Of a stretch of 64,000 bases of DNA, positions 20,260 through 62,636 are shown piece by piece; the stretch's first letter is position 1; each line of letters starts with the position of its first letter. Source of the DNA: a virus (lineage: Duplodnaviria; Caudoviricetes); the IMG/VR virus record IMGVR_UViG_3300001765_000034, positions 1-64,000 of that record; one strand, given 5' to 3'. The translations under genes were made by a program, and so were the position numbers. Below the pieces are notes generated by a model. That model was not told the DNA's origin and ran no database searches. It worked only from the letters and a program-made list of their open reading frames with translations.

Positions 20260-21053
20260 TGAAAAATATTACAGTAATTCTCCCAATATATAAATTGGGA
20301 ATCAACGAAGCATTAATGTTGGATAATGCGTTGAACTCAGTGGACGGGTTTCATGAAGACGTGAAAGTGACCATTGTATGTCCAACAGAACTAATGGTTA
20401 AATTAGATGAGTTTCTTTTAGAAGTTAGCCATAGTACACTGGAGATTAAAAAACTCACAAATGTAGGTGAAACTGATTTCGTGTCACAACTTACATTAGG
20501 AATAGAGAATTGTGATACAGAATGGTTCTCTATCTTAGAAATTGATGACGAATATAAAAAAGTTTGGTTATCATCAATGAAAGAATATTCCGAGGCATAC
20601 ACAAACGCTAACATTCTTTTACCCATTGTTAAAGATGTGAACGTTGAAGGTAAATTCTTGGGTTTTATGAATGAATCTGTATGGGCTTATGGATTTTCAA
20701 CAGACCAAGGTGTGGTTGACAAAGAATTATTAATGGAATTTCAGAATTTTCAAACTAGTGGCGGATTATATCGAACACAAGTCATTAAAGATAATGGTGG
20801 GTTTAAAAATAACATAAAACTCACTTTTTCTTATGAATTTCTTTTACGAATGGCCAATCTCGATGTTGAAATCATTACTGTTCCAAAAGTTGGGTATCAA
20901 CATGTTAATTTAAGAGAGGAATCATTATTTTGGTTATATAAAAATGATGAGAAATGGGCATTATCTGAAAATGAGGTGAAGTTTTGGTTAGAAACCGCGA
21001 AAAAAGAGTTTTATTTTAAAAATAAAAGAGAAATTTTATATAAAGCAGTTTAA
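20259..21053 (+). CDS. Glycosyltransferase, GT2-like
   Basis: ITVILPIY start, TEWFSILEIDD DxD-like motif, YEFLLRM. Confidence 0.7.
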   Translation: MKNITVILPIYKLGINEALMLDNALNSVDGFHEDVKVTIVCPTELMVKLDEFLLEVSHSTLEIKKLTNVGETDFVSQLTLGIENCDTEWFSILEIDDEYKKVWLSSMKEYSEAYTNANILLPIVKDVNVEGKFLGFMNESVWAYGFSTDQGVVDKELLMEFQNFQTSGGLYRTQVIKDNGGFKNNIKLTFSYEFLLRMANLDVEIITVPKVGYQHVNLREESLFWLYKNDEKWALSENEVKFWLETAKKEFYFKNKREILYKAV

Positions 21054-24247: not shown

Positions 24248-25743
24248 TGCAAATAATTGATATTGGTATATGTGTTAATAACATTGATCCTAAAGGTCTT
24301 GGAAGAATACGATATCGCCCATATAGTTTATATGAAAGTGAAATTAAACTTGCTTTCACTTATGAAGAGTGGGACGAGAACGATCCATTTATAGCAATTC
24401 CATTTTTACCACTTCATATTAATATAGTTCCACACGAAAAACAGTCAGTTAAACTTCTACGATATGACACAGAAAAACAGCAACAAAATGTGGAATATGT
24501 GGCTGGTCCATTTTCATCGCCTCATAATTTAGAATCCCAAACATTTTCGTCCCAACATAAAAACACAACTTATGGTGGGGAAATTGTAAAGGCCACAAAA
24601 GATATCAGAGATAAAAATGGTAACTTTAATAAACCAGCAACACCCGGTGCATTTATTAAAGATACGGATACGGGCTTCCGTGGAAAATATGGTTCTGATA
24701 TAATTTTTACTGAGAACGGATTACAACTTAGAGGCGGAATGTTAAAAGCTAAAGAAGGAAGAAACAAACAAAGTATTATTGATTTCCCTCAATTAGCAAA
24801 AAAAATGGTTCGATTTACAATGAAGAAATTTTCCAAGACTCTTCAATCTGCTCAGGAAATTACTACCACAACAAAAATTGATGCCGCAAGATTAAAGTTT
24901 ATTGTTGAATACGAACTTGACAATCTAACAACCCCAACTGAATTGAAATTGTTTGTTTATAAAGTTCTACCAAATTCAGGTGAACAATTTATGACAAATG
25001 TTTTTTCTAATGAATCAATATTTAACACAAACGATGGAAATATAGTTAAGTTAATAAACACCGGAAACACAGCCACCGATGCAACATATACAGTTTCATT
25101 AGATGGAACAATAAATAGTGGATACATTGAACTTCGTGAAGCTCTTTATTTAATTGATTCCGAAGGTCTAACTTCATTATATCATACATTTCCGAATGAA
25201 ATTGTTTATCCGTTTTATTATAGGCCAACGGCGAGATTAAAACTTGATAATAGTAATAACACGAATAAAACAATTTTCCTAAGCAGAGTTCAAGTTCGAA
25301 ATCTCCAAACTGATGGTGGGTTAATTTTCTCAAGATTATCCGCCAATCCACCTATTGTTAAAAAAGAAAAGGTTCAAAACGTTGCTCGAGAGGTTAAAAA
25401 TGGAGGGGAACAATCATTATCGAATTATAGTGCGGATAAAATTTATATAACAAGTACATCTCCAAATTCGGGTGCAAATGTGAAGAAGATTGATTTTGAT
25501 GCATTGGATCCATATGAATTAACCCAAGATGATTATATAAACAAAATTGACCCAAATACATATGGAATGGTTCGTGGAGAAAACCTATATAATTTGTTAG
25601 TGGCAATGAAAAATTTATTTGATAGTCATATTCATAATATCAATGAACCATTAGTAAAAACAGACCCAAATTGGGTTAAGTTAAATGAATTGATAGAATC
25701 TATGAGGAATGATCTTTTAAATGATTCGCTTAGAATCAACTAA
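24247..25743 (+). CDS. Baseplate hub/spike protein with gp5-like N-terminal OB fold
   Basis: IGICVNNIDPKGLGRIRY matches the gp5/VgrG OB-fold start; C-terminal VRGENL...FDSHIH. Confidence 0.6.
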   Translation: MQIIDIGICVNNIDPKGLGRIRYRPYSLYESEIKLAFTYEEWDENDPFIAIPFLPLHINIVPHEKQSVKLLRYDTEKQQQNVEYVAGPFSSPHNLESQTFSSQHKNTTYGGEIVKATKDIRDKNGNFNKPATPGAFIKDTDTGFRGKYGSDIIFTENGLQLRGGMLKAKEGRNKQSIIDFPQLAKKMVRFTMKKFSKTLQSAQEITTTTKIDAARLKFIVEYELDNLTTPTELKLFVYKVLPNSGEQFMTNVFSNESIFNTNDGNIVKLINTGNTATDATYTVSLDGTINSGYIELREALYLIDSEGLTSLYHTFPNEIVYPFYYRPTARLKLDNSNNTNKTIFLSRVQVRNLQTDGGLIFSRLSANPPIVKKEKVQNVAREVKNGGEQSLSNYSADKIYITSTSPNSGANVKKIDFDALDPYELTQDDYINKIDPNTYGMVRGENLYNLLVAMKNLFDSHIHNINEPLVKTDPNWVKLNELIESMRNDLLNDSLRIN

Positions 25744-25765: not shown

Positions 25766-27148
25766 ATGTCATACCACCGATCATACTTCGAAAAAAATAA
25801 CACCATTATAAGATATGGAAGTACAGGTTCAGAGGTTAATACGGCCAAAAATCCTAATACTGAAATATTTTACGGATCTGGGTTTTCAAAATTTATCTTT
25901 AAATTAGATTTAACTGAACTAAAAAATAAAATCTCTTCTGGCGAAAAGGTTCTTAATGAGAATACTCGTCATAATTTACGTTTAACAAACACAATATTTG
26001 GTGATGAAGATTTATTGGGTGCATTAAGAGGTACGGGAAGGCAACGTGCCGTGGCGTTCGATTTAGTATTATTCAGAATTCCCGAAAATTGGGATGAGGG
26101 TGTTGGGTATGATTATGAAGAAGCATATGATTACACCGAGGGTAATTTGACTTTTGATATTAGACCATCAAACTGGAATATGAGAACTTCATTGAGTGGT
26201 TGGACGGAATCGGGTATCTATGCTACGTCTGGCGATACTATTACGAGATTACATTTTGATAATGGGAACGAAAATATTGATGTTGACATAACAGATTATG
26301 TAAATGGTATAATCGTATCGGGACATACTGACCATGGATTGGGTCTTTCGTTCGATTATCCATACCAAGAGGTTGTGAGTGAAATCGATCAATCAGTTAG
26401 TTTCTTTACAAAATATACACAAACATTTTGGGAACCTCATTTAGAAACAGTTTTTGCTGATACTATTGATGATAATCGAGATAATTTCACCATTGATATA
26501 GAAAGAAATCTTTATTTGTATGTGGATTATATGGGTAATAGATATGATTTAGATAACAATCCAACGGTAGATGTTTTAGATTATAATCAACGACCGATTC
26601 CAAGTTTAACAGGACTCACAGCAACCAAAATTAGAAAAGGAGTTTATAAAGTCACTTTTGGTTTATCTGGGCAACTTTGTGATGGAAAACGATTCTATTA
26701 CGATAAATGGTGTGATCTTAATATTCAGACAGTTCCTATTGATTGTGTAACCCAAAAATTTGTTCCAAAACCTTTCGATGCTTTCTTTAGTATTGGAGGA
26801 AATGAGACGGACGCGAGTGATTATGTTATACAATTTGAGGGAGTAAAATTAAACGAGAAAGTAAAAAGAGGATCAACCAGAAAAATAGTTGCGACTTTCC
26901 GTTCAATTTATCATCAAAAAGGCGTATTATTAGATGAAGTTTATTATAGAATTTACGTCAAAGAAGGTAGAACTCAGGTAAATGTCTTCGAATGGACTGA
27001 AATGGATAGAACCAACGAAAATTCATTCCTTTTAGACACATCATATATGATTCCGAGAGAATACCATATTGAAATAAGAGCAAGAATTAATTCTGAAGAC
27101 GTATTTTATAGAGACGAGATAAAATTCGAAATTATTTCAGAAAAATAG
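25766..27148 (+). CDS. Probable virion structural protein (beta-rich)
   Basis: 460 aa ORF; ATATTTAT at 25747-25754. Confidence 0.6.
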   Translation: MSYHRSYFEKNNTIIRYGSTGSEVNTAKNPNTEIFYGSGFSKFIFKLDLTELKNKISSGEKVLNENTRHNLRLTNTIFGDEDLLGALRGTGRQRAVAFDLVLFRIPENWDEGVGYDYEEAYDYTEGNLTFDIRPSNWNMRTSLSGWTESGIYATSGDTITRLHFDNGNENIDVDITDYVNGIIVSGHTDHGLGLSFDYPYQEVVSEIDQSVSFFTKYTQTFWEPHLETVFADTIDDNRDNFTIDIERNLYLYVDYMGNRYDLDNNPTVDVLDYNQRPIPSLTGLTATKIRKGVYKVTFGLSGQLCDGKRFYYDKWCDLNIQTVPIDCVTQKFVPKPFDAFFSIGGNETDASDYVIQFEGVKLNEKVKRGSTRKIVATFRSIYHQKGVLLDEVYYRIYVKEGRTQVNVFEWTEMDRTNENSFLLDTSYMIPREYHIEIRARINSEDVFYRDEIKFEIISEK

Positions 27149-44631: not shown

Positions 44632-46635
44632 ATGGGCGTAGATTTTTTTGAAGAACCAGACAGACCAACGAAAGTAAAAAAACCGGGGTCAACAACGCCA
44701 ATACTTGACAATTTTTCGAGAGATTTAACTAAGTTAGCTGAAGAAGGAAAAATTGATCCTGTTGTTGGTAGGGATAAAGAAGTGAGACGGATCGCACAAA
44801 TTCTTTCTCGAAAGAAAAAGAATAATGCCGTAGTAGTCGGTGATGCTGGAGTAGGTAAAACTGCTTTAATTGAAAAACTTGCACAGATAATTGTTAAAGG
44901 TGAATGTCCAACCAGCTTGATGGATAAAAGGATAGTATCACTAGATTTGACATCATTGGTTGCCGGAACAAAATATCGTGGGCAATTCGAAGAAAGGATT
45001 AAAGGAATATTGGTAGAACTCACAGAAAATCCCCAAATTATTTTATTCATCGATGAATTACACATGATGGTTGGGGCTGGAAATGCAAGTGGATCAATGG
45101 ATGCTTCAAATATTTTTAAACCAGCTCTTGCTCGCGGTGAGTTACAATGTATTGGATCAACAACATTTGATGAATATAAAAAACACATCGAAAAAGACTC
45201 GGCATTAACTCGAAGATTTCAGAAGGTAACGTTAAAAGAACCTACACCACAAGAAACAATTGAAATACTTCATAATCTTAGAGATTCATATGAATCCTAT
45301 CATAAGGTGAAATATACTGAGAATGTGATGGAAACAATTGTTTTACTTGCAGGAAAATATATTACCGACAGGTCATTTCCGGATAAAGCAATTGATATTT
45401 TGGATGAACTTGGAGCTGAAAAAAATATTACTATTGAAATGCCAGCATCAATTGAAAATTTAAAAGAGAAAATTGAAGAGGTTAATCAAAAGAAAAGAGA
45501 CGTAGTTAAAAAACAGGACTATGAAGTTGCTGCTCAATTAAGAGATGAAGAAAAGAGATTAGTTAAAAAATTAGAAATAGAAAAACATAAATGGGAAACG
45601 GATAAAGAAACAAATAAGAATCCAATATCCATTGATGATGTTTACTCAGTTGTTACAAGTATTACTGGTGTACCCATAGCAAAACTTGATAAGAATGAAA
45701 CTTCAAGTCTTTTGACCCTTGAAAAACAACTAGGTGAAAAGATCATCGGTCAAGAAGAGGCAATCTCAACCATATCAAAAGCAATAAGGAGAAACCGTGT
45801 TGGTATTAAAGGTTCAAATAAACCGATCGGTTCTTTTATGTTTTTAGGATCAACAGGTGTTGGAAAAACTTATCTTGCAAAAACAATTGCACAACTTTTA
45901 TTTGGATCGTCTGATAATATTATTAGAATTGATATGAGCGAATATATGGAGAAACATAACGTTTCCCGTCTTATTGGCTCTCCTCCAGGTTATGTTGGAT
46001 ATGATGAAGGTGGACAGTTGACCGAAGCCGTAAAAAATAATCCGTTTTCTGTTATCCTATTCGATGAAATTGAGAAAGCTCATAAAGACGTATATAATAT
46101 GTTTTTACAAATATTGGACGAAGGACGATTAACCGATTCGTTTGGAAGAAATGTAAATTTTACCAATTGTCTTATTATCATGACATCCAATATCGGAGCA
46201 CAAAAAGTGTCTGACTTTGGAAGAGGATTGGGATTCACGCAATTAACTAGGAATCAAGAACAGGATAATAAAAAATCTATTATTTTAAAGGAACTTAAAA
46301 AACATTTTAATCCTGAATTCTTAAATCGTCTCGATGGACATATTATGTTTAATCCATTAGGTGACCCCGAATTAAAGAAAATTATCTCTATTGAAATTTT
46401 AAATCTTCAGAAAAGATTATTGGAAAAAGAATACATAGTTGAATTTCATTCATCTGTGGAGGATAGAGTTTTAGGATTAAATACTGAAGAGAATTACGGA
46501 GCGAGACCTGTAAAAAGAATCATTCAAAACCTTTGTGAAGACTTCTTGAGTGACGAAATACTTAAAGGAAACATTTTACCAAAAATACCCATCACAATAA
46601 AATATGATAAAAAAGGTGAGTTATTTATAGAATAA
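44632..46635 (+). CDS. clpC: ClpC-like AAA+ ATPase lacking the N-terminal Clp domain
   Basis: Two AAA modules (GDAGVGKT/FIDELH; GSTGVGKT/LFDEIEKAH), KYRG and GYVG pore loops, UVR-type M-domain, GLGF ClpP-docking-like loop. Confidence 0.88.
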   Translation: MGVDFFEEPDRPTKVKKPGSTTPILDNFSRDLTKLAEEGKIDPVVGRDKEVRRIAQILSRKKKNNAVVVGDAGVGKTALIEKLAQIIVKGECPTSLMDKRIVSLDLTSLVAGTKYRGQFEERIKGILVELTENPQIILFIDELHMMVGAGNASGSMDASNIFKPALARGELQCIGSTTFDEYKKHIEKDSALTRRFQKVTLKEPTPQETIEILHNLRDSYESYHKVKYTENVMETIVLLAGKYITDRSFPDKAIDILDELGAEKNITIEMPASIENLKEKIEEVNQKKRDVVKKQDYEVAAQLRDEEKRLVKKLEIEKHKWETDKETNKNPISIDDVYSVVTSITGVPIAKLDKNETSSLLTLEKQLGEKIIGQEEAISTISKAIRRNRVGIKGSNKPIGSFMFLGSTGVGKTYLAKTIAQLLFGSSDNIIRIDMSEYMEKHNVSRLIGSPPGYVGYDEGGQLTEAVKNNPFSVILFDEIEKAHKDVYNMFLQILDEGRLTDSFGRNVNFTNCLIIMTSNIGAQKVSDFGRGLGFTQLTRNQEQDNKKSIILKELKKHFNPEFLNRLDGHIMFNPLGDPELKKIISIEILNLQKRLLEKEYIVEFHSSVEDRVLGLNTEENYGARPVKRIIQNLCEDFLSDEILKGNILPKIPITIKYDKKGELFIE

Positions 46636-50564: not shown

Positions 50565-51290
50565 ATGAAAAAATCGTTAACGGAAGAAGCCCAAAGGATT
50601 ATGGAGATAATGGGAAAAATGAATTTAACTGAATTAAATGTACGATATATGGACCAGTTACTCGATAAAATTAGTAAATCTGGTATGGAATCATTAAGTG
50701 ATTACGAAAAAGAATCGTTACAAAAACTTTCAAGAGGTGAAGATACAAAAGAACCGGAAATCCATTCTCTCGGTAAATCTGAAAACACATTGAGGTTTAC
50801 CACCACCGACCAAAATAATGGCCAACCACTTGCTAGACCAAAAGACGCTGGACAGACATTCGGTAAAGCCGCTCTTAAAAACGCTTATATACATGGTGAA
50901 GCAGCAGAACTTGCTGGATATGATTTACCTGTTTTTATCGATGGTGATTTATCACAATTAGATAAACCCGTAGAAGAACAAGAAATTAGGATGTTAACCA
51001 ATAAAGGTGAATATGAGTGCGTTTCTGAGGTAGGCGAAGATGATGGTCGTCAGGTATATTATCTTGTATTAAAAAAACCAGAAGGTGACGAATCCGATTT
51101 TGATGATGAAGTGATGGGACTTAACGAAAATATGTCACAATATAATGTCTTCAACGATACTGAAATGAGTATTAATGAGGGAAACGCGTTTGTTGGAGCA
51201 GCCAAGAAAGCGAAAGAAGATGGAAAAGATAGTTTTGAATTAAATGGAAAAAAATATAAAGTAACGGTTAAGAAAACCGAACAATATTAA
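50565..51290 (+). CDS. Hypothetical protein (probable start MKKSLTEEAQRIMEIM at 50565)
   Basis: ORF track 50499-51290; the internal ATG avoids overlap and places the shared motif at the N-terminus. Confidence 0.65.
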   Translation: MKKSLTEEAQRIMEIMGKMNLTELNVRYMDQLLDKISKSGMESLSDYEKESLQKLSRGEDTKEPEIHSLGKSENTLRFTTTDQNNGQPLARPKDAGQTFGKAALKNAYIHGEAAELAGYDLPVFIDGDLSQLDKPVEEQEIRMLTNKGEYECVSEVGEDDGRQVYYLVLKKPEGDESDFDDEVMGLNENMSQYNVFNDTEMSINEGNAFVGAAKKAKEDGKDSFELNGKKYKVTVKKTEQY

Positions 51291-51324
51291 AATAACATAT
51301 ATTTATTATATAAAAACCGATAAA

Positions 51325-51681
51325 ATGAAAAAAACGTTAGAAGAACAAAAAAAGAGAATAACTCAACTTATGAGACCTATTAACGAATTAATTCATGTTA
51401 ACGATATGGATTTAGACGGTGAAAATACAAATTTTGATTCGTCTCAAGAATTAAAACCCATTATGGATCAATTAAAAGATGCAATGAGGAAATATCAAGA
51501 ACTATCAAAAAGAACACCTGTTCCAGGAACTGGAAGTCCTTATCCGACTGAAAACCTAAAGGAGTCTTTTTTGAAGTGGATGTCATTTATGTGGGAAAGA
51601 GTTAAAGAAGGTAACGATTCCGTTGAAGGACAGCTCAAGAATTACCCTATTAAACCTAATGATCCAACAGAAATGAATTAA
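51325..51681 (+). CDS. Hypothetical protein with N-terminal LEEQKKRITQLM motif
   Basis: 118 aa; ATATTTAT at 51299-51306. Confidence 0.65.
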   Translation: MKKTLEEQKKRITQLMRPINELIHVNDMDLDGENTNFDSSQELKPIMDQLKDAMRKYQELSKRTPVPGTGSPYPTENLKESFLKWMSFMWERVKEGNDSVEGQLKNYPIKPNDPTEMN

Positions 51682-51728
51682 TTTAGTTCTCAATAAAATA
51701 AAAATAATTAAACATTTTTTAAAAAACA

Positions 51729-51760
51729 TTTGGCAAATCCAAAAAAATGATTTACATTTG
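51729..51760 (+). promoter_or_regulatory. Bacteroidota sigma70-type promoter of tRNA array 1
   Basis: TTTG (51729-32), 20 nt spacer, TACATTTG (51753-60). Confidence 0.75.
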
Positions 51761-51811
51761 TACCATAATTGAGAAAAAACAAAATTTGAACATATTTAAT
51801 ATAAAGAAACA

Positions 51812-51910
51812 ATGAGAAATTTACTCGACATATTATTGGTGGCTGCAGCGGTTGAAGTCCTATTATGGGCTGATGAGGATGCACGAAAAAATGTCGGGTG
51901 TAAAATATAA
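51812..51910 (+). CDS. Leader peptide 1, MRNLLDILLVAAAVEVLLWADEDARKNVGCKI (putative attenuator peptide)
   Basis: Hand-translated 32-codon ORF between promoter and terminator; codons 4-24 are almost all L/D/V/A/E/W. Confidence 0.8.
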   Translation: MRNLLDILLVAAAVEVLLWADEDARKNVGCKI

Positions 51911-51968
51911 CTATTTACATACATGTTCTACTTAAAGAACCCGACATCTACCAAGAGTCGGGTTTTTT
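51891..51968 (+). promoter_or_regulatory. Attenuator 1: antiterminator/terminator pair
   Basis: ATGTCGGGT (51891-99) is complementary to ACCCGACAT (51939-47), the 5' arm of terminator AACCCGAC...GTCGGGTT-TTTT. Confidence 0.8.
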
Positions 51969-51984
51969 GTTTTTAGGTATGTAT

Positions 51985-51996
51985 TGTTCTTTGACA
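51985..51996 (+). promoter_or_regulatory. boxA-like antitermination element
   Basis: TGTTCTTTGACA, similar to rrn boxA TGCTCTTTAACA; recurs at 54737 and 62181. Confidence 0.6.
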
Positions 51997-52008
51997 TGAT
52001 GGAAATTT

Positions 52009-52082
52009 AGTGCGTTAGTTCAGTTGGCTAGAATGCCGCCCTGTCACGGCGGAGGTCACGGGTTCGAGCCCCGTACGCACTG
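52009..52082 (+). tRNA. trnD: tRNA-Asp(GTC)
   Basis: Canonical cloverleaf, CCGCC-CTGTCAC-GGCGG, G73, no encoded CCA. Confidence 0.92.
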
Positions 52083-52193
52083 CAATCTCAACCGAAAGTA
52101 AGTAGGTTACTGGTGAAGCGGGGGTGAGGACCCTAAGCTGATGGGTTCGAAGCCCACCAGCGCATGAAAAGCAAAAAACAGTTTGGGGATTAT

Positions 52194-52266
52194 CGAGGCC
52201 GTCGTATAATGGCTAGTAGTACCGCCCTGTCACGGCGGAGGAGGGGTTCGAATCCCACGGTCTCGG
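52194..52266 (+). tRNA. trnD: tRNA-Asp(GTC), imperfect T-stem
   Basis: Acceptor CGAGGCC/GGTCTCG, same anticodon arm as the first copy, GGTTCGAATCCC. Confidence 0.7.
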
Positions 52267-52603
52267 CTATTCTTTAGTGTAATTGAGTTAGGATTGAAAG
52301 GAGTCATGACCTGGAGATTACTATACGAAGAAACATCAATCCTGTAATCACGGCCGGGGTTATTAGGGGAGATGATTTTTAGTGAGAGCATACCGGGCAT
52401 GCGGCTCGGAGGTGAGGTTAGAGACCTTAAAGAATAAAAAATACTGTGTTAGGTAAATGGTAATAAATGTTAAAACAATGAAGAAGAAAGAAACGTCTGG
52501 AAATTCTAGACAAAAAGTAGATTTCAAAGTAATTCCAAAAGAAGAACTTGAAAAAAATCGAAGTAAGGCATATGATTACTTGATTTAAGTATGGTATTTA
52601 AAC

Positions 52604-52677
52604 GCTGCGTTAGGCAAATTGGTTAAGCCGTCAGACCTTCAATCTGAAGATTAGGGGTTCGACCCCCCTACGCAGTA
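52604..52677 (+). tRNA. trnE: tRNA-Glu(TTC)-like with C at position 33
   Basis: GCTGCGT/ACGCAGT acceptor; TCAGA-CCTTCAA-TCTGA anticodon arm. Confidence 0.65.
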
Positions 52678-52769
52678 CGAGGTTCAGTGTGAAATAGAAA
52701 GGTTTCTGAGGTTTGTTCATACTGAGGTTCAGTATAACCTTGATTATAGGTCAAAAAAAATCTCGCCAC

Positions 52770-52841
52770 GCTCGGTTCGTCTAACGGTCAGGACAAATGG
52801 TTTTCATCCATTAAATAGGAGTTCGATTCTCCTACCGAGTA
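52770..52841 (+). tRNA. trnE: tRNA-Glu(TTC)
   Basis: GTCTAACGGTCAGGAC D-arm; AATGG-TTTTCAT-CCATT. Confidence 0.9.
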
Positions 52842-52884
52842 CTTTAATTTTTTGTATTCTCTTAGTATTTATTTTAAACATTAT

Positions 52885-52969
52885 GCTCCTTTAGCTCAGC
52901 GGTCAAGAGCACCTGTTTTACAAGCAGGAGGCGAATAGTATCACGGTGGTTCGAATCCATCAAGGAGTA
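52885..52969 (+). tRNA. trnV: tRNA-Val(TAC) with 16-nt variable region
   Basis: CCTGT-TTTACAA-GCAGG; acceptor GCTCCTT/AAGGAGT. Confidence 0.82.
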
Positions 52970-53088
52970 CATACGGTTAGGACCGTTATAGCTACGGCTA
53001 TTAGGGGTGGGATGTTCGCTGCTGACCACCCCTTTATTTTAATTATCCCACAAATTTTATAGATAGATGAACAAAGAGATTAAATAAT

Positions 53089-53172
53089 CTCGAAGTGGCG
53101 GAATTGGTAGACGCGCTAGCCTAAGGAGCTAGTTCCCGAAAGGGAGTGTGGGTTCGAGTCCCACCTTCGAGA
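53089..53172 (+). tRNA. trnL: tRNA-Leu(AAG)
   Basis: Leu-type D-loop and variable arm; CTAGC-CTAAGGA-GCTAG gives anticodon AAG. Confidence 0.88.
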
Positions 53173-53313
53173 CAAAAGGTTCATGACGGAACTAAGCAGA
53201 TGTTGACCGCGTAACCTGTGCCGAGTGTTCTTGGATGTGAAGGAGTAATACCTTCAGACTCATTATGTGGATCTGCAAAAGCGTAATGGTTGAACTACTA
53301 AAAAGGCACAAAT

Positions 53314-53397
53314 GCAGACGTGGCGGAATTGGTAGACGCGCCAGACTTAGGATCTGGTGCCCGGAAGGGCGTGTGGGTTCGAGTCCCACCTTCTGTA
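53314..53397 (+). tRNA. trnL: tRNA-Leu(TAG)
   Basis: CCAGA-CTTAGGA-TCTGG; class II variable arm. Confidence 0.92.
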
Positions 53398-53452
53398 CGT
53401 TTAGACCGTTTAGAATTTTTATTAGTACTGAAGTAGCGTAGAAAATTCACTT

Positions 53453-53524
53453 GGGGAATTCGTATAGTGGCTATTATAATTGCCTTGCACGCAATGGACG
53501 GGGTTTCGATTACCCCATTCTCCA
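53453..53524 (+). tRNA. trnA: tRNA-Ala(TGC)
   Basis: ATTGC-CTTGCAC-GCAAT; G3:U70 pair. Confidence 0.88.
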
Positions 53525-53552
53525 CTTTGACGGTTCGGAAAGACGAACAAAC

Positions 53553-53627
53553 GCGGGTGTAGCTCAGCTGGCTAGAGCGTCTGATTTGCAATCAGAAGGT
53601 CGTGGGTTCGAAGCCCACTACTCTGCA
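53553..53627 (+). tRNA. trnA: tRNA-Ala(TGC), bulged acceptor stem
   Basis: TCTGA-TTTGCAA-TCAGA; G3:U70; 3' acceptor strand has one extra nt. Confidence 0.78.
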
Positions 53628-53743
53628 CAGGAGGGGTAGATTTATCAGGAGTCCTATTGATACGGATGAATACCCAGCATGGTGTGGTTACTATTTAAAA
53701 TGAAACCGTCAGCAAAACTACATACGATGAAAAAGTAACAAAT

Positions 53744-53823
53744 GGCTCTGTGGATTATGTAAACTGGCACAGCTAACGGGCTTAAACCCCGATCTTTTGT
53801 GGGTTCGAGTCCCACCAGGGCTA
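53744..53823 (+). tRNA. trnL: Atypical tRNA-Leu(TAA): enlarged D region, no variable arm
   Basis: GGCTCTG/CAGGGCT acceptor, CGGG-CTTAAAC-CCCG, canonical T-arm. Confidence 0.65.
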
Positions 53824-53829
53824 CAATTA

Positions 53830-53963
53830 TATTTCGTGGTGGAATTGGTATACACACCTGACTGAATCCCAAAAATGGATTACCTATATGCGGGCTGGAT
53901 CGGGCGTTTAAGTAGTAAGGTATTCTACGAAAGAAATTGCGGGTTCGAGTCCCGTCGAAATGT
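53830..53963 (+). tRNA. Class II (Leu/Ser-type) tRNA body interrupted by ~47 extra nt in the anticodon loop; anticodon undetermined
   Basis: TATTTCG/CGAAATG acceptor, GTGGAATTGGTATACAC D-arm, variable arm and GCGGG-TTCGAGT-CCCGT T-arm. Confidence 0.55.
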
Positions 53964-53971
53964 AATTATTC

Positions 53972-54051
53972 GGCTCTGTGGATTATGTAAACTGGCACAG
54001 CTAACCGGCTCAAACCCGGATCTTTTGTGGGTTCGATTCCCACCAGGGCTA
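53972..54051 (+). tRNA. trnL: Atypical tRNA-Leu(CAA), paralog of 53744-53823
   Basis: Near-identical body; CCGG-CTCAAAC-CCGG with compensatory stem change. Confidence 0.65.
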
Positions 54052-54093
54052 CTATATTTTTGATTTTTTCCATATTTATAATAAACTGAAAGT

Positions 54094-54270
54094 ATGTGGC
54101 AATATAAACGTATTGGATATCAATTTCATTTATTAAGAGACATGGAAGCTCAACTAAATAAAGATGGTGAGGATGGTTGGGAAATCATCTATTATACCGA
54201 AACAAAACCTGTAAAATTATCTGATTATTATGTCTCAGATATACTTTACAAAAAATACGTCAATTGCTGA
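54094..54270 (+). CDS. Small DUF4177-like protein (58 aa)
   Basis: Hand translation MWQYKRIG...LNKDGEDGWEII; stop overlaps the 5' end of tRNA-Trp. Confidence 0.5.
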   Translation: MWQYKRIGYQFHLLRDMEAQLNKDGEDGWEIIYYTETKPVKLSDYYVSDILYKKYVNC

Positions 54271-54339
54271 GTGGTTAAAAGCGTTGGTCTCCAAAACCAA
54301 TCTCGAAAGAGTTCGTGGGTTCGAATCCTACTTGGCGTG
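54257..54339 (+). tRNA. trnW: tRNA-Trp(CCA) with a variable arm
   Basis: TTGGT-CTCCAAA-ACCAA; variable hairpin CTC-GAAA-GAG; G73. Confidence 0.82.
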
Positions 54340-54455
54340 CAAAAATTTCCATCTAGTCTGTATTAACATTAACTATTAGAAATGAGGAGATTACATTAAG
54401 TTAATAATTAACTTAAATAAAAAATCTTTAATTTAATAAGAAAGTTTAACTTTTA

Positions 54456-54487
54456 CTTGGTATTTATAATTTTATTACATATATTTG
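54456..54487 (+). promoter_or_regulatory. Bacteroidota sigma70-type promoter of tRNA array 2
   Basis: CTTG, 20 nt spacer, TATATTTG (54480-87). Confidence 0.7.
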
Positions 54488-54509
54488 TACAGAATTAATA
54501 TTTGAAACA

Positions 54510-54590
54510 ATGAGAACTTTATTACATCAGCGCCCCCAAGGACAACCACCAGTGGTTGAACGGGAGACTTGTGTTCTAAATTTTTCGTAA
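54510..54590 (+). CDS. Leader peptide 2, MRTLLHQRPQGQPPVVERETCVLNFS (putative attenuator peptide)
   Basis: Hand-translated 26-codon ORF between promoter and terminator; codons 4-14 are L/H/Q/R/P except one Gly. Confidence 0.8.
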   Translation: MRTLLHQRPQGQPPVVERETCVLNFS

Positions 54591-54649
54591 TTCGAGAGTT
54601 TTTAGATTAGACAAAAGAAACCCCGTTCAGTAATGAATGGGGTTTTTTT
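54557..54649 (+). promoter_or_regulatory. Attenuator 2: antiterminator/terminator pair
   Basis: TGAACGGG (54557-64) is complementary to CCCGTTCA in the 5' arm of terminator AAACCCCGTTCA-GTAA-TGAATGGGGTTT-TTTT. Confidence 0.8.
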
Positions 54650-54657
54650 ATTTAAAA

Positions 54658-54732
54658 CTGGGTGTATTGCAGATGGTTATACTACCGTGCCCTGGAAGCA
54701 CGGGTCCGCAGGTTCGAATCCTGCCACCCAGA
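54658..54732 (+). tRNA. trnP: tRNA-Pro(TGG)-like with C33 and weak D-stem
   Basis: CTGGGTG/CACCCAG acceptor; CGTGC-CCTGGAA-GCACG. Confidence 0.65.
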
Positions 54733-54736
54733 CGAT

Positions 54737-54748
54737 TGTTCTTTGACA
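54737..54748 (+). promoter_or_regulatory. boxA-like element
   Basis: TGTTCTTTGACA, identical to 51985-51996. Confidence 0.6.
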
Positions 54749-54754
54749 TTTAAT

Positions 54755-54841
54755 GCACCTGTATCCCCCTAGTCTTCGAAACTTTCGAAACTAGAGAGCG
54801 GTAATTGGATGAGAATATGGGTTCGAATCCCTTCAGGTGTA
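54755..54841 (+). tRNA. Rearranged tRNA-Arg(TCG)-like RNA
   Basis: GCACCTG/CAGGTGT acceptor and T-arm present; no D-arm before the anticodon arm; 9-nt duplication TTCGAAACT. Confidence 0.5.
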
Positions 54842-54847
54842 CAATTC

Positions 54848-54919
54848 GCACCCGTAGTTCAATGGATAGAACACTAGACTACGGATCTTGAGATTGAGGT
54901 TCGAGTCCTCCCGGGTGTA
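54848..54919 (+). tRNA. trnR: tRNA-Arg(ACG)
   Basis: Canonical Arg D-loop AATGGATA; loop CTACGGA. Confidence 0.88.
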
Positions 54920-54977
54920 CAATTATCGGTTAAATAACCTATAAATATAATTTATCGGTTGTGGAGACGATAAATTT

Positions 54978-55062
54978 CGGGATGTGGTGTAGTTGGTAGC
55001 ATACGTGTTTTGGGAACATGGGGGAACGCAAGTCATCGCAGGTTCGAGTCCTGCCATCCCGA
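54978..55062 (+). tRNA. trnP: tRNA-Pro(TGG) with 17-nt variable region
   Basis: CGGGATG/CATCCCG acceptor, A73; CGTGT-TTTGGGA-ACATG. Confidence 0.85.
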
Positions 55063-55220
55063 CTAAAGTTAATCGTCCGTCATATGAAGATTTAATAACA
55101 GAAATAAATATTTTTGGATACTCAGCAACTGGCAGAAAATATGGAGTAAGTGACGTGTCAATAAAAAAATGGAAAGAAAAATATGAAAAAGATTTAATAA
55201 ATGGTGTATGTAGCCGGTAA
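55063..55220 (+). pseudogene. Orphan C-terminal HTH fragment resembling that of phage HNH homing endonucleases
   Basis: RPSYEDL...GYSATGRKYGVSDVSIKKWKEKY with no start codon of its own and no nuclease domain. Confidence 0.5.
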
Positions 55221-55289
55221 TTGGTGTCCGACCAGCCTGTGAAGCTGGAATCTGAAAAGACCATGTGGGTTCAAGTCCCATCATTCACC
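55203..55289 (+). tRNA. trnH: tRNA-His(GTG) with a variable arm
   Basis: G-1:C73 pair; CCAGC-CTGTGAA-GCTGG; variable hairpin TCT-GAAA-AGA. Confidence 0.85.
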
Positions 55290-55331
55290 CAAAAGCGTGA
55301 TATTTTGATTTATCACTTTATTACGCGATAT

Positions 55332-55404
55332 TGTCTCGTAGTGTAATTGGTAACATGTCTGGCTCTGGACCAGAAGACTGGGGAATCGTACTCCTCCGAG
55401 ACAA
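55332..55404 (+). tRNA. trnQ: tRNA-Gln(CTG), non-canonical T-loop
   Basis: TGTCTCG/CGAGACA; TCTGG-CTCTGGA-CCAGA; T-loop AATCGTA. Confidence 0.75.
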
Positions 55405-55413
55405 CAACTATAT

Positions 55414-55487
55414 TGCCCTGTGGTGTAATTGGTTAACATACGGCACTTTGGATGCTGTGACTCAAGGTTCGAACCCTTGCGGGGCAA
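55414..55487 (+). tRNA. trnQ: tRNA-Gln(TTG)
   Basis: Canonical cloverleaf; CGGCA-CTTTGGA-TGCTG. Confidence 0.9.
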
Positions 55488-55493
55488 CAATAT

Positions 55494-55579
55494 TCTCCTC
55501 TGGCAGAATGGACAAATGCGCCAGACTTTGACTCTGGTACCCATATTCGGGTTTGTAGGTTCGAGTCCTACGGGGAGGA
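55494..55579 (+). tRNA. trnQ: tRNA-Gln(TTG) with class II body
   Basis: CCAGA-CTTTGAC-TCTGG; variable arm ACCC-ATATTC-GGGT; Ser/Tyr-like D-loop. Confidence 0.78.
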
Positions 55580-55583
55580 CAAA

Positions 55584-55615
55584 TTTGGAAATGTCAAATA
55601 TTATACTTATCTTTG
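55584..55615 (+). promoter_or_regulatory. Bacteroidota sigma70-type promoter before tRNA-Leu(TAA)
   Basis: TTTG, 20 nt spacer, TATCTTTG (55608-15). Confidence 0.65.
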
Positions 55616-55621
55616 TCAAAT

Positions 55622-55705
55622 GCCGAGATGATGGAATTGGCAGACATGCAGCACTTAAAATGCTGTGGGCATTTGCTCGTGTGGGTTCGAGTCCCATTCT
55701 CGGTA
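55622..55705 (+). tRNA. trnL: tRNA-Leu(TAA), canonical
   Basis: CAGCA-CTTAAAA-TGCTG; class II variable arm. Confidence 0.92.
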
Positions 55706-55724
55706 CAATAATAAATGATTAGAT

Positions 55725-56462
55725 ATGTACATCATTTCAAAAACGAAAGATTATTACGATGGGGTTGTCGGTACAGTGGGTATCGATAAGTCAATTGTAT
55801 ATGATCGCAACACCGTAATTAACGAAAATAGGGAGACATTTATAGATCCATTTTCGGCGAGAAAGGGTTGGCATAAAAGGAATATTACTCCATTTCATAA
55901 CATATGTTCTCACTCAATTAAAAAGGGGTCGAGATATGAAGATGGCTCGCCATTCATTGTTGGGTTTTGTGGAAAATTATACATAGGGTGGAAATTTTAT
56001 AAAGAGGATTTTGATAGTTTTTATGGCACGAAATTCGAAACTTTCATCACTTATGATTTAGAATTCATCAAAAATGAGATAACACATAAGAGTTGGTATG
56101 GTAATTTAATTGATGACATCAATTACATTTTAACATATAATCCATTGGAAATCTTTAGAAAACTAAAAACCCCGATATTTATATACGATAGTGATTATGA
56201 CAGAAAGTTCATTAAAAGATACCACCGTAATGATGTTCTCATTACAAACCCCATACTAAAAGATTATGAGTTTTATAAAGTAATGGATAGCTTTACTGCT
56301 TTCCAAGAAATTCAAATGTTTATGGGTGGAGTATTAGGTATCGGAGAAAAAGAAATCGTTGAAGTTGAGGACAAATATAAAATCTCCCAACATGGATTCA
56401 ACGAATTTAGTTTTCGTAGAGACAAAGCAAATGGAAAAAAAAGACCACAATCCCAAAGATAA
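55725..56462 (+). CDS. Hypothetical protein
   Basis: 245 aa ORF. Confidence 0.7.
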   Translation: MYIISKTKDYYDGVVGTVGIDKSIVYDRNTVINENRETFIDPFSARKGWHKRNITPFHNICSHSIKKGSRYEDGSPFIVGFCGKLYIGWKFYKEDFDSFYGTKFETFITYDLEFIKNEITHKSWYGNLIDDINYILTYNPLEIFRKLKTPIFIYDSDYDRKFIKRYHRNDVLITNPILKDYEFYKVMDSFTAFQEIQMFMGGVLGIGEKEIVEVEDKYKISQHGFNEFSFRRDKANGKKRPQSQR

Positions 56463-56631
56463 TAAACCCCAAATAGGTTTAATGGAGTATGTTCGATTGC
56501 AACAAAATGTGACCGAAGATATTGATATGCTTAAGGCATTATCGCGACCATGGATACCACCCAACACAGATAAAATTTACTGTGGATCAGACCTTGCAGA
56601 CCAACTACAAGGTCTTTTGAATTTAAAATAA
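56431..56631 (+). CDS. Small hypothetical protein (probable start MEKKDH at 56431)
   Basis: 3' part of ORF-track 56359-56631. Confidence 0.45.
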   Translation: MEKKDHNPKDNKPQIGLMEYVRLQQNVTEDIDMLKALSRPWIPPNTDKIYCGSDLADQLQGLLNLK

Positions 56632-56693
56632 TAGGTGATTTTCTTGGAAAATAAGAAAATATTGTTACCTTTGCATTTAATAAATTTTAAACC

Positions 56694-57479
56694 ATGAAAC
56701 AATTATCAAAAAATCAAATTAAAATGAGCGTTGAAGTAATAAAAATTCTTGATAAAATGTGGTCATCGATTCACATGAAGAGGGTTACTTTAATTTCCTT
56801 TTTATTTTTATTTAATATAAGTGTAATTACCCCCGGATCTGTAAGTATTAGTGATTCTCCTATAATTCAAGATAGGACAGAGTCAAAAGAAAAATTGTAT
56901 ATTGAGGCCGTTAAATTAAAAATGGAAAATAGCTTAATATTGGAAGTTGAACGTTATTTTAACGAAGTTGCTCCTGAAACAAAATTATCCGCAAATTGTA
57001 TTGTTGAAAAATGTTTGGAATACAATACTGATATTATTTTTGTACTAGCTCAAGGGTTACTTGAATCTCATTTTGGAACAAAAGGTAAGGCTGTAAACAG
57101 TAATTCGGTTTGGAATGTAGGGACATATGATAATGGACAAGTTCTATATACATATAAAACTCCGAATGAGTCGATAGAACCCTATCTTAAATTAATAAAT
57201 GAGAGATATCTAATAAACATAACATCTAAGGGTGACACCATTTACAAAGATGTATCCCATTTGACATCTGATAAAGGATATGTTAACGATAGTGGAGATA
57301 GATTTGCTTCCGCACGGGGATATGAAAATGCTATGAGAAAGCTTATGATATCTATTGATGCAAAAACATCAATTAAGTTATATCAGGGAATTTTAATGCT
57401 ACCCGACGAAACATTCTTATCTTATTTTAATCCCAACCAAATAGAACCGAATTCAGAAAACTATTTAGCGTATAGATAA
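56694..57479 (+). CDS. Membrane-anchored glucosaminidase-like (GH73/lysozyme-like) protein
   Basis: TM segment, then FVLAQGLLESHFGT...NSVWNVG...Y...ESIEPY; promoter TACCTTTG at 56666-73. Confidence 0.65.
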   Translation: MKQLSKNQIKMSVEVIKILDKMWSSIHMKRVTLISFLFLFNISVITPGSVSISDSPIIQDRTESKEKLYIEAVKLKMENSLILEVERYFNEVAPETKLSANCIVEKCLEYNTDIIFVLAQGLLESHFGTKGKAVNSNSVWNVGTYDNGQVLYTYKTPNESIEPYLKLINERYLINITSKGDTIYKDVSHLTSDKGYVNDSGDRFASARGYENAMRKLMISIDAKTSIKLYQGILMLPDETFLSYFNPNQIEPNSENYLAYR

Positions 57480-60613: not shown

Positions 60614-62136
60614 CAGTAGTAATATCAACAAGACAAATTGATGAGAAACATATAAACACGGTAAAAAAAGCCTTTTCTCATCCGAAAACTGAATTTCTCA
60701 TTTACGAAAATGACAATAAAATGTCATTATCTGAGGTATATAATAAAGGATTGAAAGAGGCAACTAATAATTATATCGTCTTTATGCACGATGATCTCAT
60801 TATCAACTCAACTAATATGTCAAACAAAATCAATAAATTGTTTGAAAATTTTCCTGAGTATGGTATCATTGGTGTTGCAGGAACTACTGATTTAGTTAAT
60901 GGAACTTGGTGGGATATCCGGAAATCTATGCACGGAAAAATGTCTCATACACAAAATGGAAAAATATGGACTAACAAATACTCATCAGAGTCACTGATTG
61001 ATACATTAAAAGATGTTGTGACTTGTGATGGAGTATTCTTCATTGTTGATAAACGAAAAATTAAACACAATTTTGATGAAGATTTTAAAGGTTTCCACTT
61101 TTATGATATTCCATTCTTTATTAAAAATTATATCGAAGGGGTGAAGATTGGAGTTACTACCAGATTCGATTTGTTACATAAGTCTGTTGGACAAACAAAC
61201 GAACAATGGGAAGAAAATAAAAAACAGTTCGAAGAAAAATTTAAAGACGTTCTTCCTCTTAAAATGACAAGTAATAAAAGTCTTTTTGAAAAGATAAATT
61301 ATACCAAAGATAATATAGGTGTTGGAATGGTAACGTATAAAGCTGAAGATAGGATTAAACAGTCCGCAGCAACGATTCCCGGATGGGTTAAACATTTTGT
61401 TATCGTTAATGACGGTACACCATATGACCCATCATCATATCCTGAACACGCCCACATAATCCAACATGAAACAAATAAATCGGTTGGACAGGCTAAAACG
61501 TCTGCCATCAATTATCTTATGGAACAAGGGTGTGATCATATCTTTATTATAGAAGATGACATCTTAATTCAGGATGAATCCGTATTCGACAAATATATTC
61601 AAACATCTCTTAACACCGGGGTAAAACACTTAAATTACGCGTTACAGGGTCCAGCCAATAAAAAGGGATCCCAAGGATTTAATAATTTAGAAGATAGGGC
61701 AAAACAAGAACATCTTACCGAACCGAATCCAAGACAAATTGTTAAATATCCAAACGGGCATGAGATAGCAATGTATCCAAATTCAGTCGGAGCATTTTCA
61801 TATTATCAACGAGAGGTTCTTGAAAAGATTGGTGGTTTTGATGTTGTTTATAAAAATGCTTGGGAACATGTTGACCATACTATGGATGCGTTTAAAAACG
61901 GATTCACAACTCCTTATTGGTGGTTCGCTGACATCAATGAATCTTGGAAATATATAAAGGACATTGATGGTTGTATAGAAAACTCAACAATTGGACATAC
62001 ACCAGAATGGCAAGAAAATTACCAAAAGGGTTATTTACATTTTAAAAAGAAATACGGATGGGGTCCAACTGAAGTTCCGGATACGTCGCCAGAACACATT
62101 CAGAAGATTTTAACCCATCTTTTCCAAAATAAATAA
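60601..62136 (+). CDS. Two-domain GT2-like glycosyltransferase
   Basis: N-domain IVFMHDD...GIIGVAG...TCDGVF...FHFYD; C-domain VIVNDGT...FIIEDD...GGFD. Confidence 0.8.
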   Translation: MELLTVVISTRQIDEKHINTVKKAFSHPKTEFLIYENDNKMSLSEVYNKGLKEATNNYIVFMHDDLIINSTNMSNKINKLFENFPEYGIIGVAGTTDLVNGTWWDIRKSMHGKMSHTQNGKIWTNKYSSESLIDTLKDVVTCDGVFFIVDKRKIKHNFDEDFKGFHFYDIPFFIKNYIEGVKIGVTTRFDLLHKSVGQTNEQWEENKKQFEEKFKDVLPLKMTSNKSLFEKINYTKDNIGVGMVTYKAEDRIKQSAATIPGWVKHFVIVNDGTPYDPSSYPEHAHIIQHETNKSVGQAKTSAINYLMEQGCDHIFIIEDDILIQDESVFDKYIQTSLNTGVKHLNYALQGPANKKGSQGFNNLEDRAKQEHLTEPNPRQIVKYPNGHEIAMYPNSVGAFSYYQREVLEKIGGFDVVYKNAWEHVDHTMDAFKNGFTTPYWWFADINESWKYIKDIDGCIENSTIGHTPEWQENYQKGYLHFKKKYGWGPTEVPDTSPEHIQKILTHLFQNK

Positions 62137-62145
62137 TATTTATTA

Positions 62146-62192
62146 TTTGGTAATGTAAAATATTTACTTTACATTTGTACTGTTCTTTGAAA
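62146..62192 (+). promoter_or_regulatory. sigma70-type promoter plus boxA-like element before tmRNA
   Basis: TTTG, 20 nt spacer, TACATTTG (62170-77), then TGTTCTTTGAAA (62181-92). Confidence 0.7.
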
Positions 62193-62196
62193 ATAC

Positions 62197-62598
62197 GGGG
62201 GTGAATTGACTTGATTTCAAGTATCAAGGATAAATTGCAAGTAGTCAGATGTCATCTATGACTTTAATACACGGTGGTAACTTTTAGACGGCAACGTTTA
62301 CAAAAACATGGAAATTGCAGGTTTACTTGCAACTTCTAACGTTTCAGTAGCTTAGGCGAACAAACGAGAGGGTCGGGGCACATGTACCTGGTAACAGAAG
62401 TGCTTAAGGTGTAATACAACCATAAAAGTGTTAAGAGTCTCGTTTGGGGTGCTACTTTATTATAAGTGAACCCTCCACAGTTTTTGGTAACGGTGGCAAA
62501 ATAGGAACCGAATATTTGTCCGTTATGAATAACGGAATAAACTTGTAGTAATTTATTGTTGAACAGGAAAGACCGCGAAGCGATATCGCGCACCTCCA
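62197..62598 (+). ncRNA. ssrA: tmRNA (transfer-messenger RNA)
   Basis: GGGGGTG/CACCTCC-A acceptor with G3:U70; T-arm CGCGA-AGCGATA-TCGCG; internal tag ORF 62290-62355 GNVYKNMEIAGLLATSNVSVA*. Confidence 0.88.
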
Positions 62599-62636
62599 CA
62601 AATACTATCGTTCTTTACCATATAGGAGATTAAAAA

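Follow-up and report, generated by a model that had tools for sequence, protein, structure and literature searches.

In the leader-peptide attenuators of enterobacteria (ilvGMEDA for Ile, Leu and Val, thr for Thr and Ile, and trpL, hisL, leuL and pheL), a short open reading frame (ORF) with concentrated regulatory codons lies between a promoter and an intrinsic terminator, and a ribosome that stalls in it frees the antiterminator, one of four mutually exclusive RNA segments. Here, we analyze a stretch of 64,000 nucleotides (nt), referred to as the window, which is the first 64 kb of the 84,149-base IMG/VR virus record IMGVR_UViG_3300001765_000034 and carries two arrays of transfer RNA (tRNA) genes. 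Ahead of each array, on the forward strand, stands a unit of the same build: a promoter, a short codon-biased leader ORF and an intrinsic terminator, with the release of an antiterminator by stalling predicted. As in the ilvGMEDA and thr leaders, one leader would sense several amino acids. However, the enterobacterial attenuators control biosynthetic enzymes, whereas the phage units would control tRNA genes, so that the loop would close on the sensed molecule itself; the phage leaders cover up to 13–14 isotypes each, mostly with one to three codons per isotype and by isoacceptor; and their carrier is a phage, in a host phylum without Shine-Dalgarno-led initiation. The mechanism proposed is of a known kind, and what is new is its target, its breadth and its carrier.

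All described ribosome-mediated attenuators regulate genes for amino-acid biosynthetic enzymes or synthetases, unlike the units described here, in which the regulated genes are tRNA genes. In Escherichia coli, the pheM leader of pheST attenuates the synthesis of a component of the translation apparatus, a synthetase, through a run of one codon type; the phage units likewise have a target in the translation apparatus, but the target is tRNA genes and the codon types are many. T-box riboswitches also sense the supply of a particular tRNA and switch a terminator/antiterminator pair, but they bind uncharged tRNA directly through a specifier codon, without translation, whereas the signal in the phage units lies in a reading frame. 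The T-box covariance model of Rfam gave no match at E values up to 1 over 51000–57000, nor at the gathering score over the whole window. The arrays of T4, T5 and vibriophages resemble those studied here in that large phages carry many clustered tRNA genes; they are regarded as supplements for codon usage or counter-defence and have been described as constitutively or temporally expressed. A full-text literature search yielded no description of such an array with a leader ORF or an attenuator, and it found leader-peptide attenuation in amino-acid and synthetase operons only, with none for tRNA genes or phage tRNA arrays. This agrees with the remark in an earlier, model-made reading of the same DNA without database searches (the sequence-only reading) that it knew of no codon-sensing attenuation in phage tRNA arrays. 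To our knowledge, the regulation of phage tRNA genes is essentially undescribed, and the arrays are usually treated as passive supplements.

Given a completeness of 27% (CheckV), the record is a fragment of a phage of about 300 kb, and the phage belongs to giant phages with Bacteroidota-type hosts. From the evidence below we consider it probable, at roughly 0.8, that a ribosome-mediated attenuator of the trp type gates each tRNA array, its leader ORF serving as a multivalent decoding test. A tRNA block would then probably be made only when the codons of its leader are decoded slowly.

Two leader units ahead of two tRNA arrays

The first unit opens with a promoter of the Bacteroidota sigma-A type (51729–51760), composed of a −33 TTTG (51729–51732) and, 20 nt later, a −7 TAnnTTTG box (51753–51760). 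The box pair recurs at equal spacing ahead of leaders in relatives and matches the sigma-A consensus described for Flavobacterium (PMC9723704). An A-rich 5′ leader, unpaired in the fold, precedes leader ORF 1 (51812–51910), which starts with ATG, has 32 codons and is conserved in relatives. Its sensor comprises codons 4–24, of which 20 of 21 specify Leu, Asp, Val, Ala, Glu or Trp, all isotypes of array 1; the exception is one Ile codon (ATA). For this leader alone, 20 of the 25 codons that precede the antiterminator match the array, compared with a background share of 0.34 (binomial P = 4e-6).

Four segments make up the predicted switch. Segment 1 (51823–51831, within codons 4–7) is an anti-antiterminator that pairs with segment 2 in the minimum-energy fold. 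Segment 2, the antiterminator (51891–51899, codons 27–30), is a perfect 9-nt complement of segment 3, the 5′ arm of the terminator (51939–51947, placed by folding and complementarity), and its outer pairs co-vary in relatives. Segment 4 (51955–51968) supplies the 3′ arm and the T-run, and the G+C-rich 3:4 hairpin followed by six T forms the predicted terminator 1 (51939–51968). When folded separately, the 1:2, 2:3 and 3:4 pairings reach −23.8, −15.4 and −18.3 kcal/mol. We then masked the RNA with a 30-nt ribosome footprint that was forced to be unpaired, folding it as it stands when segment 3 has just emerged. Along leader 1 the antiterminator forms for A-site codons 1–22 and is blocked for codons 24–33. 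The sensor codons therefore occupy just those positions at which a stall would favor read-through; once the ribosome has reached the ORF end, termination would be favored.

Most of this architecture had been noticed in the sequence-only reading, and it holds up: the promoter, the 32-codon ORF and the terminator lie in the order it gave, its count of 20 of 21 sensor codons within six array isotypes is correct, every synonymous codon that it listed is present in leader 1, its 9-nt antiterminator in codons 27–30 is a perfect complement of the terminator arm, and the two mutually exclusive structures that it proposed to look for are found by folding. It contained neither segment 1 nor the paralogous unit 2 (54510–54649). 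The predicted terminator hairpins stand 46 nt (unit 1) and 15 nt (unit 2) ahead of the first tRNA. As a candidate end of the upstream gene 51325–51681, terminator 1 was ruled out, given that promoter 1 stands between the two.

Unit 2 is built alike with a different set of codons. Promoter 2 (54456–54487) has a −33-like box and a −7 TAnnTTTG box at 54480–54487, and leader ORF 2 (54510–54590) has 26 codons, with codons 4–14 as its sensor; 10 of these 11 are Leu, His, Gln, Arg or Pro, isotypes of array 2. The leader start and its upstream context share with leader 1 a 17-nt motif that occurs in the record at these two sites only. The antiterminator (54557–54564) is a perfect 8-nt complement of 54622–54629, within the predicted terminator 2 (54618–54649, hairpin and T-run, −20.1 kcal/mol). 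Array 2 follows with tRNA-Pro (TGG; 54658–54733), tRNA-Arg (ACG; 54848–54920), a second tRNA-Pro (TGG; 54978–55063, 86 nt), tRNA-His (GTG; 55204–55290, 87 nt), tRNA-Gln (CTG; 55332–55405), two further tRNA-Gln (TTG; 55414–55488, and 55494–55580 with 87 nt) and tRNA-Leu (TAA; 55622–55706), all of them found by both ARAGORN and Rfam. Leader 2 uses TTA for both of its Leu codons and CGC for its Arg codon, in keeping with the Leu-TAA and Arg-ACG anticodons of the array. That two paralogous leaders should differ in codon set and yet each fit the array behind it is hard to explain without the attenuator idea. Array 2 continues without a detectable terminator into a same-strand protein gene (55725–56462; phrog_4243, unknown function), and attenuator 2 may for this reason also gate protein genes.

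Leader and array content in relatives

As a clade marker we used a ClpB/ClpC-like ATPase gene (44632–46635; phrog_4871, E value 8e-235) about 5 kb upstream of leader 1, which has 571 relatives in IMG/VR. In GenBank, the phage records nearest to it come from uncultured phages of approximately 640 kb (LR756502.1 and LR745206.1, about 53% identity). The best 80 of the 571 ATPase loci were scanned, together with loci found from DNA motifs and fetched contig stretches. The scan looked for a terminator with a complement of at least 6 nt of its 5′ arm no more than 110 nt upstream, and for an ATG ORF of 14–60 codons containing or abutting that complement. A simple terminator scan missed both attenuator terminators, whose loops or stems lie beyond its limits; folding and the dedicated scan found them. 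As an IMG/VR probe, the 17-nt start motif common to both leaders was unspecific and was set aside (more than 116 stretches matched, with leaders in only 5), and a motif from the end of the sensor of the Asp/Glu/Leu/Ala/Trp family of leaders (hereafter the Asp family) gave 17 stretches, 6 of which are chance matches within protein genes. Megablast and blastn searches of the leader region against GenBank phages returned tRNA matches only, with no leader homologue.

In the 84-kb record the rule-based scan gave no match besides the leader units. In many relatives it detects leaders ahead of tRNA arrays, and each time the leader composition tracks the array: a Pro/Gln/His leader stands ahead of Pro-His-Pro-His-Gln, a Tyr/Lys leader ahead of Tyr-Lys, a Ser/Asn/Ile/Thr/Arg/Gly/Cys/Phe leader ahead of Cys-Ile-Ser-Gly-Ile-Asn-Asn-Thr-Arg, and a Ser/Ile/Asn/Arg/His leader ahead of Ser x3-His x2-Ile-Asn x2-Arg x4-Ser. 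Candidates without downstream tRNAs mostly have 6–7 nt complements and unremarkable peptides; the few with 8–9 nt complements merely extend into the A/T-rich flanks of the terminator itself. Upstream complements of at least 8 nt accompany 14 of 27 array-start terminators, compared with 4 of 320 other terminators in the same loci.

The match was quantified over 19 distinct leader/array pairs, from this record and relatives. These statistics are conservative, since array content was taken from ARAGORN calls only and one leader of locus L133, for which the ‘longest ORF’ rule took the wrong frame, was kept. Sensor codons, counted here as all codons ahead of the antiterminator, match the leader's own array in 245 of 422 cases, against 121 expected from the proteome composition of the loci, and leaders represent 99 of the 106 isotypes of their own arrays, against 65 expected. 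The mean z-score is 3.4 with the own array, −0.4 with dissimilar arrays, and −0.6 and −0.5 in the other two frames; the reverse strand is likewise near zero. In 20,000 random re-pairings of leaders and arrays, the observed sum was never attained. Under strict wobble, 205 of the 245 matched codons are readable by an anticodon of the own array, and most of the remainder belong to four-fold boxes served by a U34 tRNA.

Two other explanations have to be weighed against these figures. An AT-rich intergenic ORF rich in common amino acids could stand beside a terminator by chance; Leu, Ala, Val, Glu and Asp are indeed common, and a codon window chosen after the fact inflates the match. However, the permutation, frame and genome-wide controls reject this explanation, and the rare isotypes Trp, Cys, His and Met are matched by leaders as well, leaving chance a negligible probability. 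A switch independent of the ribosome, T-box-like or protein-bound, might instead read tRNA directly while the ORF stays untranslated, and T-box leaders do join a terminator/antiterminator pair to tRNA sensing. Against such a switch, no T-box or other cis-regulatory family of Rfam is found here even at permissive thresholds, the signal is specific to one frame, and all relatives retain an open frame whose start codon lies in A-rich sequence free of pairing; we consider such a switch very unlikely.

The attenuator reading is further supported by co-variation within leader families. In the Asp family, Val codons in the sensor go with tRNA-Val in the array (this window, L134, L140, L226 and L228), and the leaders of L133 and L135, whose arrays are without tRNA-Val, are without Val codons. 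The Pro/His/Gln family has an Arg codon where the array has an Arg tRNA (this window, L133 and L195) and neither in L126, and in the Ser/Ile/Asn family internal Met codons accompany Met(CAT) tRNAs (L225 versus L127). Across nine aligned Asp-family leaders, the six-isotype set accounts for 101 of 123 residues in variable columns of the sensor, compared with 6 of 57 outside the sensor. The antiterminator helix of this family varies in a compensated way: the 2:3 pairs just beyond an invariant core alternate between A-U, U-A and G-C, with a covariation score of 0.167, a value that none of 500 shuffles attained (0.047 when shuffled). The terminator core is invariant within the Asp family, and in one lineage the entire terminator arm and segment 2 have been replaced jointly. 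The sequence-only reading had suggested comparing leader codons with array content in relatives and asking whether the ORF is conserved. Codon content does co-vary with array content, within and between leader families, the ORF is conserved with substitutions that stay inside the array's isotype set, and the antiterminator pairing that it described shows compensatory changes. Together with the exclusive structures, these results support its interpretation as trp-type ribosome-mediated attenuation.

Applied blind to both strands of a complete relative, IMGVR_UViG_3300017917_001524 (310,542 bases, 100% complete and with terminal repeats), the scan returned a single candidate, directly ahead of the main tRNA array; all 25 sensor residues of this leader fall within the 13 isotypes of the first sub-array, and none within the 7 isotypes that only the second sub-array has. 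A second leader, with the complementary codon set, stands ahead of the second sub-array and was missed by the scan because its complement is shorter. The two leaders divide isoacceptors between them. For Ile, the first leader of this relative has ATT and ATC and its sub-array has tRNA-Ile(GAT), and the second leader has ATA and its sub-array a CAT tRNA; for Arg, CGC and CGA in the first leader correspond to Arg(ACG) in the first sub-array, as AGA in the second leader does to Arg(TCT) in the second sub-array.

Through tRNA matches we also reached Cellulophaga phage phi4:1 (NC_021788.1) and Maribacter phage Panino (PP540027.1), which have two like-built units each. A leader rich in Gln, Arg, Leu, His, Glu and Pro stands ahead of Pro-Glu-Gln-His-Leu-Leu-Arg, and one rich in Ala, Thr, Gly, Ile, Lys, Asp, Val, Arg and Tyr ahead of Ala-Lys-Ile-Gly-...-Asp-Thr-Val. 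The leaders lie at about 87065–87133 and 88025–88108 in phi4:1 and at about 25321–25401 and 26342–26416 in Panino. All of these units have a TAnnTTTG promoter, and their predicted terminators are strong (fold z-scores −3.6 to −6.3); three of the four leaders lie inside short coding sequences annotated as hypothetical proteins. The Panino paper mentions 20 tRNAs and a transfer-messenger RNA (tmRNA), and no leader or attenuator control of them. Both phages are cultured, with Cellulophaga baltica and Maribacter halichondriae as the respective hosts, which makes the attenuation idea directly testable in culture.

Such annotated coding sequences, overlapping leaders in phi4:1 and Panino, would suit an explanation in which the short ORFs encode functional, for example membrane, peptides, the terminator halts a constant share of transcripts and in this way sets the tRNA dose, and the codon match is incidental; leader 1 is indeed hydrophobic and resembles a membrane helix. 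Yet leader composition changes wholly with the array and always tracks it (Pro/His/Gln, Tyr/Lys, Ser/Ile/Asn/Arg), substitutions preserve membership in the isotype set and not residue identity, and the antiterminator always lies within the ORF. A peptide function in place of attenuation is therefore highly improbable.

Proposed mechanism and its trigger

In the mechanism that we propose, host RNA polymerase would start at the Bacteroidota sigma-A promoter and transcribe an A-rich 5′ leader and an ORF of 22–45 codons, the first two thirds of which would sample codons of the tRNAs encoded downstream, often one per isoacceptor. Slow decoding of any sampled codon would stall the ribosome upstream of segment 2, allowing 2:3 to pair, so that no terminator forms and polymerase reads through, meets a boxA-like element and transcribes the array. 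If all codons were decoded fast, the ribosome would pass over or occupy segment 2, the 3:4 hairpin would form and transcription would stop; without translation, segment 1 would sequester segment 2 and transcription would stop too. The net result would be negative feedback, each tRNA block being synthesized if, and only if, too little charged tRNA is available to meet the demand of its codons. We infer from sequence that the ORF is translated and coupled to transcription, and likewise the direction and strength of the response, including that stalling causes read-through. Flavobacterium has Shine-Dalgarno-less initiation and signs of leader-peptide attenuation at amino-acid operons (PMC9723704), and for this reason the host machinery should permit attenuation.

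Several observations weigh against this mechanism. Each isotype is sampled by one to few codons, fewer than in classical single-amino-acid leaders. The predicted 1:2 pairing, strong in leader 1, is weaker in leader 2 (−10.9 kcal/mol). In 15 of 18 leaders, the stop codon and segment 2 are at most 16 nt apart. Leader 2 and two more leaders have the stop codon 23–31 nt past segment 2, which a terminating ribosome would not cover; in leader 2 itself the distance is 23 nt and masking at the stop is doubtful. In L228 (17218–17352 of IMGVR_UViG_3300025140_000001), the Asp-family leader is about 15 codons longer (Asn, Met, His, Tyr, Ile, Ser, Gly, Gln, Lys), and for approximately half of its sensor codons (Asn, Met, His, Tyr, Ile, Ser, Gln, Lys) no tRNA was found in the adjoining array; a fusion of leaders, or tRNAs of the array that escaped detection, may account for this. 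In IMGVR_UViG_3300033518_000398, few tRNAs are detectable between Asp and Trp.

A low amount of tRNA, its cleavage by defence nucleases and poor charging are triggers that sequence alone cannot discriminate. Tentatively, and at well below even odds, the leaders may be isoacceptor-resolved sensors of depletion or cleavage in the host tRNA pool, whether host anticodon nucleases are responsible or the phage itself shuts off host tRNA, with transcription of the matching block completing a self-tuning counter-defence circuit that would go beyond dosage homeostasis. An unlikely alternative is that the attenuators are real but respond to amino-acid starvation or poor charging and not to tRNA amount or integrity, so that the arrays are co-regulated with translational stress. 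The structural evidence fits low and uncharged tRNA alike, and the classical trp, his and ilv attenuators respond to the level of charged tRNA however it is lowered. However, extra tRNA gives no relief of an amino-acid shortage, which would make this a feedback without benefit, and the isoacceptor match (Ile ATT/ATC versus ATA, Arg CGN versus AGA, four Leu codon classes) is superfluous for sensing amino acids but needed for sensing individual tRNAs.

If the arrays are gated by attenuators as proposed, phage tRNA synthesis would be demand-driven and block-specific, and this would be the first case of leader-peptide attenuation closing the loop on tRNA itself. It would widen the reach of classical attenuation, which would then cover many isotypes together and operate in Shine-Dalgarno-less Bacteroidota. 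The leader codons would also show, from sequence alone, which tRNAs form a single functional unit for a phage, and atypical tRNAs overlooked by gene finders would be included.

boxA-like elements and the tRNA genes

Processive antitermination through boxA and Nus factors is known from ribosomal RNA (rRNA) operons. A 12-mer that we take to resemble bacterial boxA lies just past terminator 1 (51986–51997) and is repeated exactly in unit 2 (54738–54749), a third boxA-like copy (62182–62193) heads a tmRNA gene (62197–62601), and related copies follow the attenuator terminators in most relatives. As in rRNA operons, the element heads a long untranslated structured transcript; it differs in belonging to a phage and in sitting behind a proposed leader-peptide attenuator, and Nus-factor binding is putative. 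Because of the known role of boxA in rRNA operons, polymerase that has passed the attenuator may become termination-resistant for the long untranslated array. The tmRNA scores 50.1 bits in Rfam with permissive filters only and is missed by ARAGORN and by default Rfam filters; within the region 62130–62601 it has its own TAnnTTTG promoter in addition to the boxA-like element. In the relative L126, a tmRNA (8940–9304, 97 bits) lies inside a tRNA array.

Array 1 (52009–54340) begins with tRNA-Asp (GTC; 52009–52083) and a weaker copy of it (GTC; 52194–52267, ARAGORN, 31 bits in Rfam), followed by two tRNA-Glu (TTC; 52604–52678 and 52770–52842), tRNA-Val (TAC; 52885–52970, 86 nt with a long variable region), tRNA-Leu (AAG; 53089–53173), tRNA-Leu (TAG; 53314–53398) and tRNA-Ala (TGC; 53453–53525), and it ends with tRNA-Trp (CCA; 54257–54340, 84 nt), all found by ARAGORN and Rfam. 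A second tRNA-Ala (TGC; 53553–53627) is found by Rfam (55.8 bits) and not called by ARAGORN. Running ARAGORN with lowered thresholds and introns was dropped, as it gave a mass of false tRNAs, and Rfam was used in its place. The content that the sequence-only reading gave for this array thus stands for Asp (two copies), Glu (two copies), Val, Leu-AAG, Leu-TAG, both Ala and Trp; its Leu-TAA and Leu-CAA, at 53744–53825 and 53973–54054, are called by neither ARAGORN nor Rfam at normal thresholds. Both align with Leu-TAA and Leu-CAA tRNAs at the equivalent array position in relatives, and the anticodon stem of the latter is compensated relative to the former, which makes them probable tRNA-Leu genes of an atypical kind. 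The two are near-identical; both lack a long variable arm and carry 5 extra nt in the D-loop, and they escape standard tRNA finders. Between them lies an interrupted tRNA-like gene (53830–53963; 29.5 bits in Rfam, and alignment) with a Leu-type D-arm and an interruption of about 60 nt after the anticodon region; its anticodon is possibly GAA, and if it is a working tRNA-Phe, leader 1 carries no codon for it.

Small ORFs also occur within array 1, at 52457–52588 (43 codons) and at 54094–54270 (58 codons), the latter overlapping the start of tRNA-Trp and giving no family match. Val, Trp, Pro, His and Gln tRNAs normally have a short variable loop. In both arrays, tRNA-Val (52885–52970), tRNA-Trp (54257–54340), tRNA-Pro (54978–55063), tRNA-His (55204–55290) and tRNA-Gln (55494–55580) have an extended variable region and a length of 84–87 nt. 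Such extended tRNAs often adjoin a copy of normal length of the same isotype, and the pairing of short and long copies is also seen in relatives, for example in L140. The arrays of the window and relatives are partly sorted by first codon base, into a G-starting group (Asp, Glu, Val, Ala), a C-starting group (Pro, His, Gln, Arg-CGN) and a third, A-starting group (Ile, Met, Thr, Asn, Ser-AGY, Arg-AGR). In relatives, ORFs resembling HNH-type endonucleases are inserted among the tRNA genes (9700–10300 in L126 and 6200–6740 in L127), and L177 carries a group I intron at 20776–20988 (68.8 bits in Rfam).

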